Position numbers and translations under genes: made by a program. From the IMG/VR virus record IMGVR_UViG_3300029504_000072: DNA of 13,090 nucleotides. The stretch is one strand, 5' to 3'. Positions 1,914 through 8,906 of this stretch are shown in pieces. Below the pieces are notes generated by a model. The model searched no databases. It was given only the letters and a program-made list of their open reading frames with translations, and had not been told where the DNA came from. The DNA is from a virus. Its lineage: Duplodnaviria; Heunggongvirae; Uroviricota; Caudoviricetes. The stretch's first letter is position 1, and every line of letters begins with the position of its first letter.

Positions 1914-3108
<1,195 letters not shown>

Positions 3109-3112
3109 CTAA
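3109..3112. repeat. IS5 target-site duplication, right copy (CTAA)
   Basis: CTAA directly after the right IS5 inverted repeat, matching 1910-1913. Confidence 0.9.
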
Positions 3113-3173
3113 CATTTTAAATGTTGGAATCGCAACGTAGTTATTATCATATAACAGCTTGTTTCCTGATTTA

Positions 3174-3201
3174 GCCAGCCTCCCCAAAGGCTGGTTTTTT
3201 T
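3174..3201 (+). terminator. Rho-independent terminator (plus-strand orientation)
   Basis: Stem CCAGCC (3175-3180) / GGCTGG (3189-3194), 8-nt loop, then a T-run at 3195-3201. Lies between IS5 and the blc stop. Confidence 0.55.
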
Positions 3202-3229
3202 CTAATAAGTATCATTTCGGGTGGGGATT

Positions 3230-3754
3230 TTATTGTTTAACCCATAATAGTTCATTGACATTGAATCCCAACTTTTGAGCGGTACGCACATAGTCTGCTT
3301 TTACATTATCTGGAATAGTTTGGGTCCTTGCCAGAATCCATAGGTATTCTCTGTTCGGACCACTGACAAGAGCATACTTATACTCATCATCCAGCTTGAT
3401 TACATTATAGCCACCATAGAAGGGGCCAAAAAACGAAACTTTCAACGCTGCAGTTTTAGTATCTCCAGTAAAGTATGCTTTACCTTCGCTCTCGCTCCAT
3501 TTGTTTTTCGTTGGATCGTATCCACGGTTAAGTACGCGAATCCCTCCGTCGTTCCGTTTTTCATAAGTAGCGCTGACTTGTTCCAGACCACGTTCGAACC
3601 AGTTCTCGAGGCGAGCTATTTCATACCATTTTCCGAGGTAGCGGTTGGCGTCAAAATTTGTAATCGGCTGCACACCTTTAGGTGGTGTCGGGGCCTTACA
3701 TGCTATAAGAGTGAAAGAGAGTGCAATGCCAGTCAACACAGGCCATAACTTCAT
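3230..3754 (-). CDS. blc: Outer-membrane lipoprotein, bacterial lipocalin Blc family (divergent paralog)
   Basis: 174-aa ORF with lipoprotein signal and lipobox (MKLWPVLTGIALSFTLIAC); lipocalin motifs NFDANRYLGKWYEIARL and KVSFFGPFYGGYNVI...YLWILAR; roughly half of positions match E. coli Blc as I recall it. Confidence 0.85.
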   Translation of the reverse strand: MKLWPVLTGIALSFTLIACKAPTPPKGVQPITNFDANRYLGKWYEIARLENWFERGLEQVSATYEKRNDGGIRVLNRGYDPTKNKWSESEGKAYFTGDTKTAALKVSFFGPFYGGYNVIKLDDEYKYALVSGPNREYLWILARTQTIPDNVKADYVRTAQKLGFNVNELLWVKQ

Positions 3755-3946
3755 AATAAATCCTGTACTTTTGATAGTTGAGAGTAAGTATGAAAGATAG
3801 ATGAGTACGACCGATCACTTAAAGAACTTTCCTACTATATTAGGAATAGTCAATAACAGAAAAATTGTCAGTGATGAAGCCAGAAAGGCAATTTAGTCCG
3901 TGCACTACAAAGTTTATGTGTTAATGAATTAGTCAAGGGGGAGGAA

Positions 3947-4906
3947 ATGATAAAAAAACCTGTGATTGGGATCAGCGGTTGTTTGGGCGGTTCTGCTGTT
4001 CGTTTTGATGGTGGTCACAAAAGAGATGACTTTTTAATGGACAAATTAGTGGAATGGGTAACATTCAGACCAGTATGTCCGGAAATGGCTATAGGGCTGC
4101 CAGTTCCGCGTCCTGCTCTACGACTTGTGCGCTCGAAGCAAGGAAATATACGGATGTGTTTCAGCCACGACCAGAATGAGGATGTGACAGAGAGAATGAC
4201 AGAGTTTAGTCGTTCTTATATGGACAAATTAAAGGATGTATCGGGGTTTGTGGTTTGTGCTAAATCTCCCAGCTGTGGCATGGAGCGCGTGCGTGTCTAT
4301 GATGAAAATGGTAATCGAGGTCGTAAAGATGGAGTGGGACTATTTACGAGCACTTTGATGGAAAAGTTTTCCTGGCTACCGGTTGAAGAGGATGGGCGAT
4401 TACATGATCCAGTGCTTCGTGAGAATTTTATTGAAAGAGTTTTTGCTTTGCATGAGCTCAATCATCTTTACAAGGAGAAATTATCAAGAAGAGAGTTATT
4501 AGCTTTTCATAGTCGTTATAAGCTTCAGTTGTTGGCGCATAGCCAGGCAGGCTATAAAGATATGGGACCATTTGTGGCTGCAATACACGAGTGGGCGGAC
4601 CTTGAATCATACTTTGAGGTGTATCGTGATAATCTGATGGCGATTCTCAGAAAACCAGCATCACGTAAAAATCACACGAATGTGCTGATGCATATACAGG
4701 GGTATTTTAGTAATTACTTAAGTACACGCCAGCGTAAAGAGTTGAGCGAGGTTATACTTAACTATCGCTTTGGCACATTGCCTCTTCTTGCGCCGTTGAC
4801 TCTGCTGAAGCATTATCTGGGTGAGTATCCTAATGATTACTTGCTTACACAGAATTACTTCGATCCCTATCCGGAAGAACTGGCTCTAAGACTGATGGTG
4901 AATTAA
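3947..4906 (+). CDS. DUF523/DUF1722 two-domain protein (TudS-like Fe-S domain fused to YbgA-like domain)
   Basis: 319-aa ORF; strong RBS GGGGGAGGAA before the ATG. N-terminal motifs GISGCLGG...VRFDGGHK, VCPE and SPSCG match the Cys-containing DUF523 signature; the C-terminal half resembles YbgA-type DUF1722. Confidence 0.75.
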   Translation: MIKKPVIGISGCLGGSAVRFDGGHKRDDFLMDKLVEWVTFRPVCPEMAIGLPVPRPALRLVRSKQGNIRMCFSHDQNEDVTERMTEFSRSYMDKLKDVSGFVVCAKSPSCGMERVRVYDENGNRGRKDGVGLFTSTLMEKFSWLPVEEDGRLHDPVLRENFIERVFALHELNHLYKEKLSRRELLAFHSRYKLQLLAHSQAGYKDMGPFVAAIHEWADLESYFEVYRDNLMAILRKPASRKNHTNVLMHIQGYFSNYLSTRQRKELSEVILNYRFGTLPLLAPLTLLKHYLGEYPNDYLLTQNYFDPYPEELALRLMVN

Positions 4907-5312
4907 CTGTATGCGATATCATCTGAAAGTGATGAGTTCCTGTATGCAGGATATTTACAATCGTAAAAACTACGCTATGATGCTCATAGTGTCAGTTTTT
5001 ATAAAAATCCTGTTCACGCTAAAGAAAACATTGAGATGCAATTTAATGTTGGTAAACATACCAGCCCCAAACGATTTTATTCAATCTGTTTTTATATGAA
5101 GATATTTCAAGTGAATATTAAGAGTATATAATATTATTATTGCACGCAGCTATTATAATATAACAGATTAGTTTAATGATTTGTTTTTTGTGAGTTAAAC
5201 ACATGGTTTTATAGTTGTGATGCAATGAGATTTTCCTTATTGTTGAACTGGCGAATATTGATTTTCCACCTATACTTACCTGGTGTAACCCCAATGATAT
5301 CAGGTGGATAAT

Positions 5313-6026
5313 ATGCCATACATATGTTCTATCATTTTGGTGTTGAACTCGTTTGGTGTCCGAATTGGTAAAGAAGATATTTTGTTTAAAAAAGGAAATG
5401 CTGTCCTCATTGAATACAATTTAAAAGATCTTTTTTCGTCAAATACAGATCATCTAATGATCGTAGATGTTGAGGAGAAAACAGTTAATGATTTCTTTAA
5501 AAACTACACACTCTCACCTTTTTCTGTAAGAAGGTTTTATCCGTCATACTTGATAGTAGAATGTGAAGATTTTTCATTGTTAAGGAACTTGGTTGCATGC
5601 TTGAATTGTGATAGCAAAACCGTGGATGTAGTTAGAAATCAAATATCACTTGCATGTCTTGCTGTCTTATCTTCAGAGAAAATAGTGCAAAGTTTTTTGT
5701 TCGGAAGTCTTAATAGCTTAGGTTGTAAAGTTAAGGCTATTATTCACTCGGATATCTCAGCGTCATGGAGACTTTGTGATATATCTTCAAGATTATATAT
5801 GAGCGAGAGTTTGTTAAAAAGAAAATTAAAAGACGAAGGATTATCGTTTAGTAAATTAATTCTTGAAGAACGAATGATGATGGCGCAAAGATTATTGATC
5901 TACAGTAACCATACTGTCGGCAAGGTGGCGGGAATATGCGGGTATGACAATGCATCATATTTTGTAAGTGTTTTTAGAGGATATTTTGGTGTGCCTCCGC
6001 ACCAATATTTATCAAGATTTTCTTAG
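5313..6026 (+). CDS. AraC/XylS-family transcriptional regulator, AppY-like
   Basis: C-terminal AraC HTH (LLKRKLKDEGLSFSKLILEERMMMAQRLL...KVAGICGYDNASYFVSVFRGYFGVPPHQY); N-terminus MPYICSIILVL resembles AppY-type regulators. I place the start at ATG 5313 (RBS AGGTGG at 5302-5307) rather than the track's GTG 5304. AT-rich gene and upstream region. Confidence 0.8.
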   Translation: MPYICSIILVLNSFGVRIGKEDILFKKGNAVLIEYNLKDLFSSNTDHLMIVDVEEKTVNDFFKNYTLSPFSVRRFYPSYLIVECEDFSLLRNLVACLNCDSKTVDVVRNQISLACLAVLSSEKIVQSFLFGSLNSLGCKVKAIIHSDISASWRLCDISSRLYMSESLLKRKLKDEGLSFSKLILEERMMMAQRLLIYSNHTVGKVAGICGYDNASYFVSVFRGYFGVPPHQYLSRFS

Positions 6027-6094
6027 AAGATATGATGTGATGGCATTTTATAAAGTTATTTTTTGAAGTGTAAGATTATACGATATTTTTAGCT

Positions 6095-6126
6095 ACGCCA
6101 GAATAATTGCTGGCGTTTTTCTTTTT
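6095..6126 (+). terminator. Rho-independent terminator downstream of the AraC gene, upstream of the holin (possible tR'-like)
   Basis: Perfect 7-bp stem ACGCCAG / CTGGCGT (6095-6101, 6110-6116), 8-nt loop, then TTTTCTTTTT at 6117-6126. Confidence 0.65.
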
Positions 6127-6216
6127 GAATAGATGTTCGGGCCTTACGCTAATGTAACTTCTTTCCTTCTTCGAACCAAACCGTGTACACCATCCGTTAT
6201 CTGCGGAGGTGAGGCT

Positions 6217-6432
6217 ATGAAATCCATGGATAAGTTAACAACGGGCATCGCCTACAGCACCTCTGCAGGCAGTGCTGGCTACTGGTTTTTACAGTTGCTC
6301 GATAAAGTCACACCCTCACAGTGGGCGGCAATAGGTGTATTGGGTAGTCTGGTATTTGGCATGCTGACGTATCTGACAAACCTTTATTTCAAGATTAAAG
6401 AAGACAGGCGTAAGGCTGCGAGAGGAGAGTAA
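6217..6432 (+). CDS. Class II holin (phage 21 S-type pinholin) with dual-start motif
   Basis: 71-aa product [31 protein letters not shown]...[13 protein letters not shown]; two TM segments and a charged C-terminus; Met1 and Met4 starts (antiholin/holin); RBS GGAGGTGAGG at 6205-6214. The track's 99-aa ORF from 6133 carries an N-terminal extension with no RBS. Confidence 0.85.
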
Positions 6433-6436
6433 GACA

Positions 6437-6655
6437 ATGACTAAAAACTATGAACTGATTGTGAAAGGGACCCGCAATTTTGAGAATAAAGTTACGGTAA
6501 TCTTAACGTTACAGGACAAAGAACGTTTTGCCGGTGAAATTTTTGATCTGAACATCAACCTTGAGCGACTTGAAGGAGCTGGTTTGGATTATTATGAAGT
6601 TACTGCGGTAAAACATGCCAAACAGTTCTTGAGAGATTTGGCTGAAAAAATATAA
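6437..6655 (+). CDS. Hypothetical 72-aa protein between holin and endolysin (positional equivalent of Qin ydfR)
   Basis: RBS AGGAG at 6423-6427; soluble, no TM. Occupies the slot where Qin-like prophages carry a small gene between S and R; homology not verifiable here. Confidence 0.5.
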   Translation: MTKNYELIVKGTRNFENKVTVILTLQDKERFAGEIFDLNINLERLEGAGLDYYEVTAVKHAKQFLRDLAEKI

Positions 6656-6673
6656 AGCGGCATTACTGCCGCT
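6656..6673. terminator. Bidirectional hairpin between convergent small genes
   Basis: Perfect 7-bp stem AGCGGCA / TGCCGCT with 4-nt loop TTAC, starting 1 nt after the 6437-6655 stop. The A-rich plus-strand flank at 6644-6655 gives a U-tract for the minus-strand transcript. Confidence 0.5.
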
Positions 6674-6766
6674 TAGAAATTATTCAATGTCTGGTAGCTT
6701 ATCAAAGATTTCGGATACTCTTATATTTGTCATATAAGCAAATTGAGATTCTGCCAGCTCTTTGGG

Positions 6767-6976
6767 TTATTTTCCCGCTTTTTCTGAGCCAAAAATTGTT
6801 TCTAAAGCCAGCATGTTATATTTGAGAACCTCTTCTCGAGTTTTACCTGATAATTTTGCGGTAACAGCAATATAAAAAGGCAACACTTTATCCAGAAGGT
6901 CGTTGTGTTTTGTCAGTTGTGGTAATACCACATCAAGTTGCTTACTGATTGGTTTGAATGGATCTATACCGTTCAT
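6767..6976 (-). CDS. Hypothetical 69-aa protein, antisense to the lysis operon
   Basis: Minus-strand ORF MNGIDPFKPISKQLDVVLPQ...FGSEKAGK; AGGGA 8 nt upstream of its ATG (spacing long); ends at the shared hairpin. No family recognised. Confidence 0.45.
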   Translation of the reverse strand: MNGIDPFKPISKQLDVVLPQLTKHNDLLDKVLPFYIAVTAKLSGKTREEVLKYNMLALETIFGSEKAGK

Positions 6977-8314: not shown

Positions 8315-8391
8315 TTGCTATGGTTGGTTAATCATGCGTTAATGGTGTTCTGGTTTGTTACAAAATTATCTGAAGCAGTCATTGTTATAAT
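8315..8391 (+). promoter_or_regulatory. Candidate promoter region for the cold-shock gene
   Basis: cspA-like -35 TTGCTA (8315-8320) with 17-bp spacer to -10 GTTAAT (8338-8343), preceded by an AT-rich UP-like tract; alternatively an extended -10 TGTTATAAT at 8383-8391. Either gives a long (about 95-145 nt) 5' UTR. Confidence 0.35.
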
Positions 8392-8494
8392 TTTATTATT
8401 TGTACCTCTTGAGATTTCCTTGTTGGTTTTTCTCTCTGATATTTTTTTTCGGACCATTCTGCCCAAGGGCTAACTTCTTCAAAAGGTAATAATG

Positions 8495-8707
8495 ATGTCT
8501 AACAAAATGACTGGTTTAGTGAAATGGTTTAACCCTGAAAAAGGTTTTGGTTTCATCACGCCGAAAGATGGTAGCAAAGATGTGTTTGTCCATTTCTCAG
8601 CTATTCAGAGCAACGATTTCAAAACGTTAACTGAGAATCAGGAAGTAGAATTTGGTATTGAGAACGGACCTAAAGGCCCCGCGGCTGTTCATGTTGTGGC
8701 ACTTTGA
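8495..8707 (+). CDS. cspI: CspA-family cold-shock protein (CspI-like, 70 aa)
   Basis: Cold-shock domain with RNP1/RNP2 motifs ([16 protein letters not shown]); protein [20 protein letters not shown]...; RBS AAGG at 8483-8486. Start taken at the second ATG (8495), not the track's 8492. Synteny with rz, gnsB and terminase fits the Qin cspI context. Confidence 0.9.
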
Positions 8708-8906
8708 GGTAGAAAATATTACAAACCATATTCACTTTAGATGCCCGTGTTGCCATGGTTCTCAGTATAGAACATCATCTTTTGATGTTTCTGACAGGAA
8801 TCCTTTCGGGGCAAAATGTATCTTTTGTAAATCAATGATGATTACATTTGATAATATTTCACAATACTTAAATGTTAGCCGTCTGTCGTTAGATTTAAGA
8901 AAGTGA
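8691..8906 (+). CDS. Hypothetical Zn-ribbon small protein (Ogr/Delta-like Cys spacing), overlaps the cspI 3' end
   Basis: 71-aa ORF from ATG 8691 (17-nt overlap with cspI); four-Cys motif CPCC-x21-CIFC; followed directly by a strong terminator. No good RBS, so possibly translationally coupled or not a gene. Confidence 0.3.

Follow-up and report, generated by a model that had tools for sequence, protein, structure and literature searches.

RudS, a fusion of TudS with DUF1722, desulfurates 4-thiouridine (s4U) in tRNA; its overexpression lowers tRNA s4U and shortens the growth delay induced by ultraviolet A (UVA) light, and in RudS_KT the residues C17, C49 and C114 are ligands of the cluster, with mutation of E51, R60, S111 or S113 abolishing activity (Jamontas et al., NAR 2024, PMC11417400). 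One of the enzymes in that study, RudS_vir (H3V29_gp66 of Escherichia phage 1H12), reduced tRNA s4U when expressed in Escherichia coli (PMC11417400). Among gut lambda phages, >50% have been described to carry the lipocalin gene blc as a moron (Mathieu et al. 2020, PMC6969025), AppY, PatE and PsrB are prophage-encoded AraC-family activators of the GadE/AR2 acid-resistance genes (PMC10877973, PMC10057817), and a further report places stx in the slot between the genes Q and S of Stx phages (PMC8065619). Here we analyze a 13,090-nucleotide stretch of viral DNA (IMG/VR record IMGVR_UViG_3300029504_000072), hereafter called the window, in which positions 3113-6126 carry a lipocalin gene (blc2), rudS and an AraC-type regulator gene (araC). 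An earlier note on this DNA had considered that the three genes could not be assigned to any described system, a view that did not hold up, as RudS_vir, the blc moron and the prophage-borne AraC regulators of acid resistance all match. We consider that the region is probably a 3-kb moron cassette of lambdoid coliphages, composed of two parts and located between Q with pR'-tR' on one side and the lysis genes S-R-Rz on the other.

Identity of the three genes

All three genes are real, as the earlier note had held, each being an intact open reading frame (ORF) with a strong family match in Pfam. The middle gene (3947-4906, plus strand) encodes a protein of 319 residues which contains the two domains of the TudS (DUF523)-DUF1722 fusion, PF04463 at residues 7-149 (5.8e-40) and PF08349 at residues 192-309 (9.4e-40), and its N-terminal part aligns to the TudS structure 6z92. 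This protein is identical to RudS_vir of phage 1H12 (gp66) at 293 of 319 residues (92%), and the cluster ligands Cys12, Cys44 and Cys110, together with Glu46, Arg55, Ser107 and Ser109, are all present and sit in the expected motifs GCL, VCPE, PRP and SPSCG. Because of the domain fusion, the 92% identity to RudS_vir and the full set of catalytic residues, the middle gene is, as judged from its sequence, rudS, coding for a [4Fe-4S] tRNA s4U desulfidase; the earlier idea of a nucleobase enzyme with an Fe-S cluster was thus well founded. RudS_vir is the product of the same cassette gene, with the same fusion, the same length and the same Cys12/44/110 plus Glu/Arg/Ser/Ser set, and the neighbors of its gene in 1H12 are those of the cassette as well, with a divergent blc upstream, araC downstream, and Q and the holin gene on the flanks. 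However, the two proteins differ at 8% of their residues, and activity has been demonstrated for RudS_vir whereas the window protein is assigned by sequence only. In the tRNA of the host, the enzyme would restore uridine from 4-thiouridine, with loss of this near-UV photosensor and a lessened UVA growth delay. Accepting this assignment, the annotation of the gene in the window as a "YbgA family protein" would be replaced by that of RudS, an eraser of a tRNA modification.

On the opposite strand, blc2 (3230-3754, minus strand) encodes a Blc-type lipocalin lipoprotein of 174 residues (PF08212, 7.5e-43), which passes the cutoff of the NCBIfam Blc subfamily (NF007786; 312.6 bits vs. 267) and matches the PDB entry 3mbt of Blc at 8.3e-67. 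The lipobox LIAC is followed by Cys19 and by a lysine at position +2 (MKLWPVLTGIALSFTLIAC-K). Under the sorting rule for bacterial lipoproteins, lysine at +2 is not a residue that leads to retention in the inner membrane. Because of the lipobox and this lysine, the product is predicted to be an outer-membrane lipoprotein, and as such it would be anchored in the outer membrane and bind damaged or lyso-lipids. The Lipocalin_2 fold and the lipobox are common to blc2 and E. coli Blc (PDB 1QWD, 2ACO, 3MBT), but blc2 falls in a separate, rudS-linked lineage, with 58.6% identity to Blc of K-12 vs. 78-80% to the paralogous copies found next to rudS in Enterobacter and Citrobacter; an orthologue of the ampC-linked blc of E. 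coli was ruled out by this 58.6% identity and by the different locus. The phage blc of Mathieu et al. (PMC6969025), carried by Lambda_2E9, 1H12 and the ev-series phages, is this cassette gene.

The third gene, araC (5313-6026, plus strand), encodes a regulator of the AraC/XylS family with 237 residues (PF12833, 3e-16; PF00165, 6e-11); it starts at ATG 5313, as in RefSeq, behind the Shine-Dalgarno sequence AGGTGG, and not at GTG 5304. Over residues 1-237, BLASTP aligned the protein with the AraC-family protein at the OI-8 position of O157 (47% identity, 6e-76), GadW (33%, 4e-45), AppY (30%, 3e-41) and YdeO (29%, 2e-32). The homology to relatives of the GadW/AppY/YdeO type extends over the full length, including an N-terminal CS(V/I)I..SF(D) motif and a C-terminal domain with two helix-turn-helix motifs. 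The O157 protein (L003, 5664-6407) is likely PatE, as judged by its location only. All NCBIfam equivalog cutoffs were missed (YdeO, the best match, 112 bits vs. 348; GadX, 89.8 vs. 500; HilD, 92 vs. 354), and for this reason we rejected YdeO, GadX or any other named regulator as its equivalog. These comparisons place the window AraC in the GadW/YdeO/AppY/PatE clade as a distinct member of its own, and its annotation in the window as a "helix-turn-helix protein" can accordingly be sharpened to a GadW/AppY/PatE-like regulator.

Relatives of this regulator (26-46% identity) stand by themselves in mEp332, PhiR70_1, ev099, an Stx2k phage and P1-like phages, and a further relative lies in an O157:H7 prophage remnant at 0.33 Mb; a tblastn search of Sakai Sp6 found no AraC homologue, and PsrA was thus not located there. 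AppY (DLP12), PatE (OI-8) and PsrA/PsrB (OI-50/57) resemble the window araC in being AT-rich, phage-borne and preceded by a long AT-rich upstream region. They differ in position, with araC in the Q-S slot, AppY at the right end of its prophage and PatE and the Psr regulators at the tail-fiber or effector end. By analogy with AppY, PatE and PsrB, the window AraC would act on promoters such as those of gadE and hdeAB, and we give about even chances to an action in trans on the acid-resistance network of the host, which is its likeliest role. PHROGs sorts the three cassette proteins into phage families with no assigned function (phrog_2809, phrog_3275 and phrog_1450).

The slot downstream of Q and its transcription

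In every annotated context that we examined, the order of genes runs from Q to blc on the minus strand, rudS and araC on the plus strand, and then the holin gene. This order was seen in Qin-like, DLP12-like and lambda-like (P, ren, ninB) prophages as well as in isolated phages, among them Lambda_2E9, 1H12 and IdasGreatGrand, with the trio lying between Q and S in 12 isolated lambdoid phages. Precisely this arrangement (Q plus, blc minus, rudS plus, araC plus, holin plus) was seen in 73 of 80 IMG/VR viral contigs with the middle gene; most of the other seven are cut off by a contig end or close to one (L099, L103, L113, L128 and L143 among them), and the fully flanked exceptions are an IS1-associated deletion (L080) and a rearrangement (L146). 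Complete E. coli genomes, 5426 in number, contained the 3.2-kb region at a coverage of at least 80% in 876 cases, the blc-rudS pair in 1048 (~19%) and araC in 996.

The cassette therefore sits in the leader of the late operon, downstream of Q, and not in the early region where the earlier note had placed it, since intact relatives have it between Q and the holin gene S. Replacement of the early region was rejected on the same ground and because the integrase segment of the window belongs to another island. That the genes are horizontally acquired cargo within a prophage was, in contrast, a sound reading: they stand between conserved backbone genes, Sakai Sp6 differs in carrying other cargo genes in the same Q-S slot, and the cassette has its own terminators (4965-5003 and 6095-6126) and a composition unlike that of the backbone, all features of a moron. 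Like stx and other cargo of this slot, the cassette lies downstream of Q/pR'/tR' and upstream of S, brings its own terminators and a deviating composition, and is absent from otherwise related phages. Unlike stx, it comprises stress and physiology genes with no toxin, and blc2 is antisense to the late transcript. Our search of the literature found no account of the trio as a unit.

Two occurrences outside of coliphages were also noted. Short contigs of a "Candidatus Nanosynbacter" metagenome-assembled genome (L060 and L065) carry the E. coli phage cassette with 85-97% protein identity, and their presence in this Saccharibacteria bin is almost certainly due to contamination by coliphage or E. 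coli DNA. The plasmids NZ_CP067312.1 and NZ_LR890350.1 (H134 and H135; 293-300 kb) have a YbgA-family, rudS-like gene with 65-67% nucleotide identity to the cassette gene; such large plasmids are a second, non-phage route of rudS into E. coli.

In relatives that lack IS5, the 155 bp from the stop codon of Q to that of blc consist of TTGCTG-17 nt-TAACAT and a conserved leader, followed by the terminator that lies at 3173-3203 in the window. From this position and from lambdoid biology, we infer that TTGCTG/TAACAT is pR' and that the terminator is tR'. IS5 has removed Q and the -35 element (TTGCTG in the intact relatives) from the window, where 3109-3172 (plus strand) would be a remnant of the late-promoter region, with the -10-like TAACAT and the initially transcribed leader; a 26-mer of this leader (3135-3160) is retained in every cassette allele. 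The putative tR' (3173-3203, plus strand) forms a hairpin at 3173-3196 with a 9-bp stem followed by U7 (free energy, dG, -14.9 kcal/mol; z score -4.2), and it would end a short pR' transcript when Q is absent. A small RNA at 3160-3203 was considered and rejected, as the match to the Rfam family Betaproteobacteria_toxic_sRNA reached 28.6 bits vs. a gathering score of 50 and coincides with the terminator hairpin. The hairpin at 4965-5003 (plus strand), 60 nt past the rudS stop codon and flanked by an A-tract and a U-tract (dG -14.8 kcal/mol, z score -5.7), is a likely rudS terminator and likely splits rudS and araC into separate transcription units. The intrinsic terminator after araC (6095-6126, plus strand) has a hairpin at 6095-6116 with a 7-bp GC-rich stem and a UUUUUCUUUUU tail (dG -11.3 kcal/mol).

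Within the cassette, the intergenic regions are indeed long and AT-rich, as had been noticed before. The divergent region between blc2 and rudS (3755-3946) comprises 192 bp at 34% GC and presumably holds both promoters, and the rudS-araC spacer comprises ~400 bp at 31% GC. In the Qin-type allele only, the latter spacer contains a partial copy (~80 nt; 5101-5182, plus strand) of the pR' leader (3109-3172), with a local alignment score of 59 vs. 38.8±5.3 (maximum 57) for shuffled sequences; its core is a 26-nt repeat (ACGCAGCTATTATAATATAACAGATT vs. ACGTAGTTATTATCATATAACAGCTT) that is 85% identical between 3135-3160 and 5144-5169. This copy, which explains the longer spacer of the Qin-type allele and is missing from three other copies of the cassette (L004, L006 and L007), may be a second Q-responsive element or a scar of recombination. 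The same spacer has an ORF of 62 residues (4911-5099) with no PHROG match and no RefSeq annotation. By eye only, we also observed an inverted repeat AAATTG...CAATTT at 3862-3897 in the blc2-rudS spacer, with a loose likeness to the half-sites of the MlrA box.

We surmise that in a lysogen each cassette gene would be expressed from its own promoter, with the terminators at 4965-5003 and 6095-6126 keeping this transcription off the lysis genes. Upon induction of an intact phage, Q-modified polymerase starting from pR' would pass all three terminators into S-R-Rz, as is the case for stx; this read-through would cross blc2 in antisense, and rudS and araC, read in sense, would be expressed late. 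In the window, with Q and the -35 element of pR' gone, the lysogen type of expression alone would be possible.

The same layout brings up the possibility that rudS is mainly an auxiliary gene of the lytic cycle which benefits the phage, with the fitness of the lysogen being secondary. While rudS is co-oriented with the late operon directly downstream of Q/pR'/tR', is retained in phages isolated as plaque-forming particles and belongs to enzymes that cut the UVA-induced growth delay (PMC11417400), it keeps a divergent intergenic region and a terminator, as would a gene expressed in the lysogen, and it is under purifying selection in defective prophages without Q, such as the window. In addition, the pR' transcript would run antisense to blc2. 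We regard a primary role in the lytic cycle as conceivable, albeit on the improbable side.

Origins of the cassette and the question of co-regulation

A scan of species-representative genomes yielded 62 chromosomal loci with a RudS that is 66-76% identical to that of the window. In 42 of these loci, from other Enterobacterales, a blc2 homologue lies upstream of rudS on the opposite strand. The distance between blc2 and rudS is ~1.4 kb in 36 of the 42, and the two genes are directly adjacent in two loci, including that of Citrobacter sedlakii (L014), where the spacing is 187 bp vs. 192 bp in the phage. The sole insert that we characterized, from Enterobacter cloacae (L029, 4663-5898), contains genes for a MerR regulator resembling MlrA, which at 196 bits stays below the cutoff of the MlrA model, and for a periplasmic protein of the HiuH/transthyretin-like type. 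This insert is probably the native regulatory context that was lost by the phage cassette. The chromosomal loci of Enterobacter, Leclercia and Citrobacter thus have the divergent arrangement in common with the cassette, but the cassette is devoid of the MerR and HiuH-like genes and is followed instead by an unrelated AraC gene. No homologue of the latter was found in any of the 62 chromosomal rudS loci, and the phage and chromosomal blc2-rudS intergenic regions do not align, with no MerR-type operator carried over. Regulators of the MerR family are also neighbors of rudS in the light-responsive operons of Salmonella (ORF319) and Pseudomonas (LitR, in PhrB-LitR-RudS) (PMC11417400). As a separate observation, rudS closes a cluster in Klebsiella oxytoca (L013, 1537-5986) and Pectobacterium (L017, 1239-5987), behind four to five ORFs, the final one being small and lipoprotein-like; judging by their order and their N-terminal sequences, we took these ORFs for a flavin adenine dinucleotide-dependent amine oxidase, a DUF1365 protein and a cyclopropane fatty acid synthase-like protein, plus a short-chain dehydrogenase in Klebsiella, and by the same features the clusters resemble those of photo-oxidative stress.

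Comparison of the phage alleles with each other shows nucleotide identity of 92-100% across blc-rudS and of 74-95% from ~4850 through araC, and the synonymous divergence (dS) of araC exceeds that of blc or rudS by a factor of 2-6 in the same phage pairs. With respect to composition, the claim of a low GC content shared by the three genes was right in part: araC (33.6% GC) and the spacers (28-34%) are low, but blc2 (43.8%) and rudS (43.1%), jointly at 43-44%, match the lysis genes (44.9%), and the terminase region is at 54%. Purifying selection is evident in each of the three genes from ratios of nonsynonymous to synonymous divergence (dN/dS) of 0.09-0.17 for blc2, 0.14-0.22 for rudS and 0.21-0.23 for araC. 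Because 42 loci have the pair without an AraC gene, the GC content differs between the parts, identity drops at the 3' end of rudS, dS is higher in araC, and relatives of the regulator stand alone elsewhere, we conclude from these comparisons that the cassette has two parts of different origin, namely a captured blc2-rudS pair and a separately added araC. The pair, whose genes are ancestral neighbors on the chromosomes of Enterobacteriaceae, would have been captured as one divergent unit from a member of this family.

These findings bear on the proposal of the earlier note that the three genes could form one co-regulated module with a dedicated regulator. In such a module, the AraC protein would control blc2 and rudS, and it might, for instance, have taken over from the MerR-type regulator that went missing upon capture of the pair. 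The recurrent linkage that the note had looked to for support was indeed found, in 73 of 80 viral contigs and ~1000 complete E. coli genomes; it is explained just as well by tight physical linkage in a 3-kb phage slot. To the near-invariance of the trio, with its exceptions at contig ends or insertion-sequence events, one may add that the genome counts of the pair (1048) and of araC (996) are close, that three divergent araC alleles all travel with the blc-rudS pair, and that the chromosomal pair has a local MerR/MlrA-like regulator which is absent from the phage cassette. Nonetheless, a co-regulated system fails because 1) the pair occurs without the regulator, in the 42 chromosomal loci; 2) the regulator family occurs without the pair, in other phages and prophages; 3) the parts have different histories, as seen from the GC content and dS of araC and from the mosaic breakpoint at the 3' end of rudS; 4) a terminator lies between rudS and araC, each of which ends in its own. 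In addition, AppY, PatE, PsrB, GadW and YdeO target acid-resistance genes of the host and not their neighbors, and we found no shared operator or common repeated motif in the blc2-rudS and rudS-araC spacers, other than the 26-nt allele-specific leader repeat. A dedicated regulator is thus unsupported, and we hold co-regulation of the trio to be unlikely.

Prophage lipoproteins of the outer membrane can block receptors, and a module for superinfection exclusion or anti-phage defense, in which the lipocalin would mask a receptor like Cor or Llp and the other two genes would be accessory, is thus another conceivable function for genes in a moron slot. None of the three proteins has a match in PADLOC (E<=0.01), for which reason a defense system was rejected; moreover, blc2 and rudS have chromosomal orthologues in the 42 non-phage loci, and the lipocalin fold and the Blc family point to lipid binding, making this function very unlikely. 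That the genes are a decaying, non-functional remnant is extremely improbable, even with Q and the early region gone, IS5 inserted and the DUF1327 gene truncated, given three intact ORFs, copies elsewhere with 100% (blc2 and rudS proteins) or 99-100% (AraC) identity, dN/dS of 0.09-0.23 and the complete catalytic residues of RudS.

Our preferred reading, a two-part moron cassette between Q and S, has to be weighed against several points that speak to the contrary. First, the near-invariant trio would be equally expected from a functional unit of three genes. Second, a scan for promoters in the cassette found 11 consensus matches vs. 10.3±2.9 expected, i.e. not above chance; the best site (4954-4981, 10 of 12 positions) lies upstream of araC, with the total number of sites at the chance level. 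Third, the assignment of pR' and the read-through by Q are drawn from position and from general lambdoid knowledge. Fourth, with 29-47% identity between the window AraC and its characterized relatives, its targets are guessed by analogy. Finally, of the tRNA desulfidases compared, RudS_vir had the lowest activity, which was seen under overexpression only (PMC11417400).

The rest of the window and implications

The window represents a lambdoid prophage of E. coli of the Qin type; it is defective, with the early region and Q missing, IS5 inserted and the DUF1327 gene truncated. IS5 (1914-3108, plus strand, 1195 bp) encodes its transposase at 1982-2962 (DDE_Tnp_1, 5.8e-35) and ends in the terminal inverted repeats GGAAGGTGCGAACAAG and CTTATTCGCACCTTCC, with CTAA at either side; position 3113 is the first base beyond the element and its flanking CTAA, and the insertion point is a CTAA within the putative pR' promoter. 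The two limits drawn by the earlier note, IS5 on the left and the terminator at 6095-6126 before the holin gene on the right, are therefore correct. In other strains, e.g. S171-1, IS5 likewise sits at this CTAA in the interval from Q to blc.

To the left, IS5 links the cassette with an integrase island that is unrelated to it. Bases 1-1913 contain an integrase gene, two small AT-rich ORFs (1254-1490 and 1506-1778) with no match in Pfam or PADLOC, and the truncated end of a minus-strand gene (~1800-1913), beside which lies a hairpin with a T-run near 1780-1800. These bases are found at 100% identity in 17 complete genomes; in strain 300081 they adjoin an IS5-like element and hsdR, 1.45 Mb away from the strain's own copy of the cassette. 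The entire window was found in one place in no complete E. coli genome. Because bases 1-1913 lie elsewhere in 300081 and no genome holds the whole window, the window consists of two unrelated regions joined across IS5, and its integrase does not come from the prophage that carries the cassette. The joint arose either from recombination of two IS5 copies or as a chimera of the assembly.

To the right, the class II holin gene of the S21/EssD type (6217-6432, plus strand; PF04971, 6.1e-34) leads the lysis genes and, as a backbone gene, bounds the slot on the right; it starts at 6217 (MKSMDK) and not at 6133, and RefSeq has essD/essQ at matching coordinates. In the region behind it (6437-6976), the ydfR-like DUF1327 gene is truncated to 72 residues vs. 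103 in strain 50EVAW, and a minus-strand ORF (6767-6976, phrog_25324) occupies the space up to the lysozyme gene; together, these changes are a local replacement within the lysis module. Further along, 8337-8753 (plus strand) is a full-length match to the cspA thermoregulator of Rfam (RF01766, 112 bits vs. a gathering score of 78), which includes the 5' untranslated region of cspI (8492-8707), a cold-shock gene of the prophage, together with its coding sequence.

Taken as a whole, the cassette is widespread, selectively maintained and of a familiar kind, with two of its genes in the literature and the third in a well-known clade, and it is not a new type of system. The conserved synteny of blc2 and rudS across the Enterobacteriaceae hints that the lipocalin paralogue shares a stress response with rudS; no such link was found in the literature that we searched. 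In the study that defined the enzyme, E. coli is said to lack RudS, and the words "prophage" and "lipocalin" never occur (PMC11417400). Contrary to that statement, a prophage rudS is present in ~19% of complete E. coli genomes, which is relevant to studies of s4U, of the stringent response and of the growth delay under UVA in natural isolates. On a more speculative note, the cassette might serve as a survival package, in which RudS, expressed in the lysogen and boosted by Q after UV, would erase s4U, the lipocalin would handle photo-oxidized lipids, and the AraC protein, in place of MerR, would link both to the acid and stationary-phase network, thereby providing UVA and acid tolerance to about one fifth of E. 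coli strains. We consider this combined scenario doubtful; if it is true, a phage would edit the tRNA epitranscriptome of its host, and translation would continue in sunlight.

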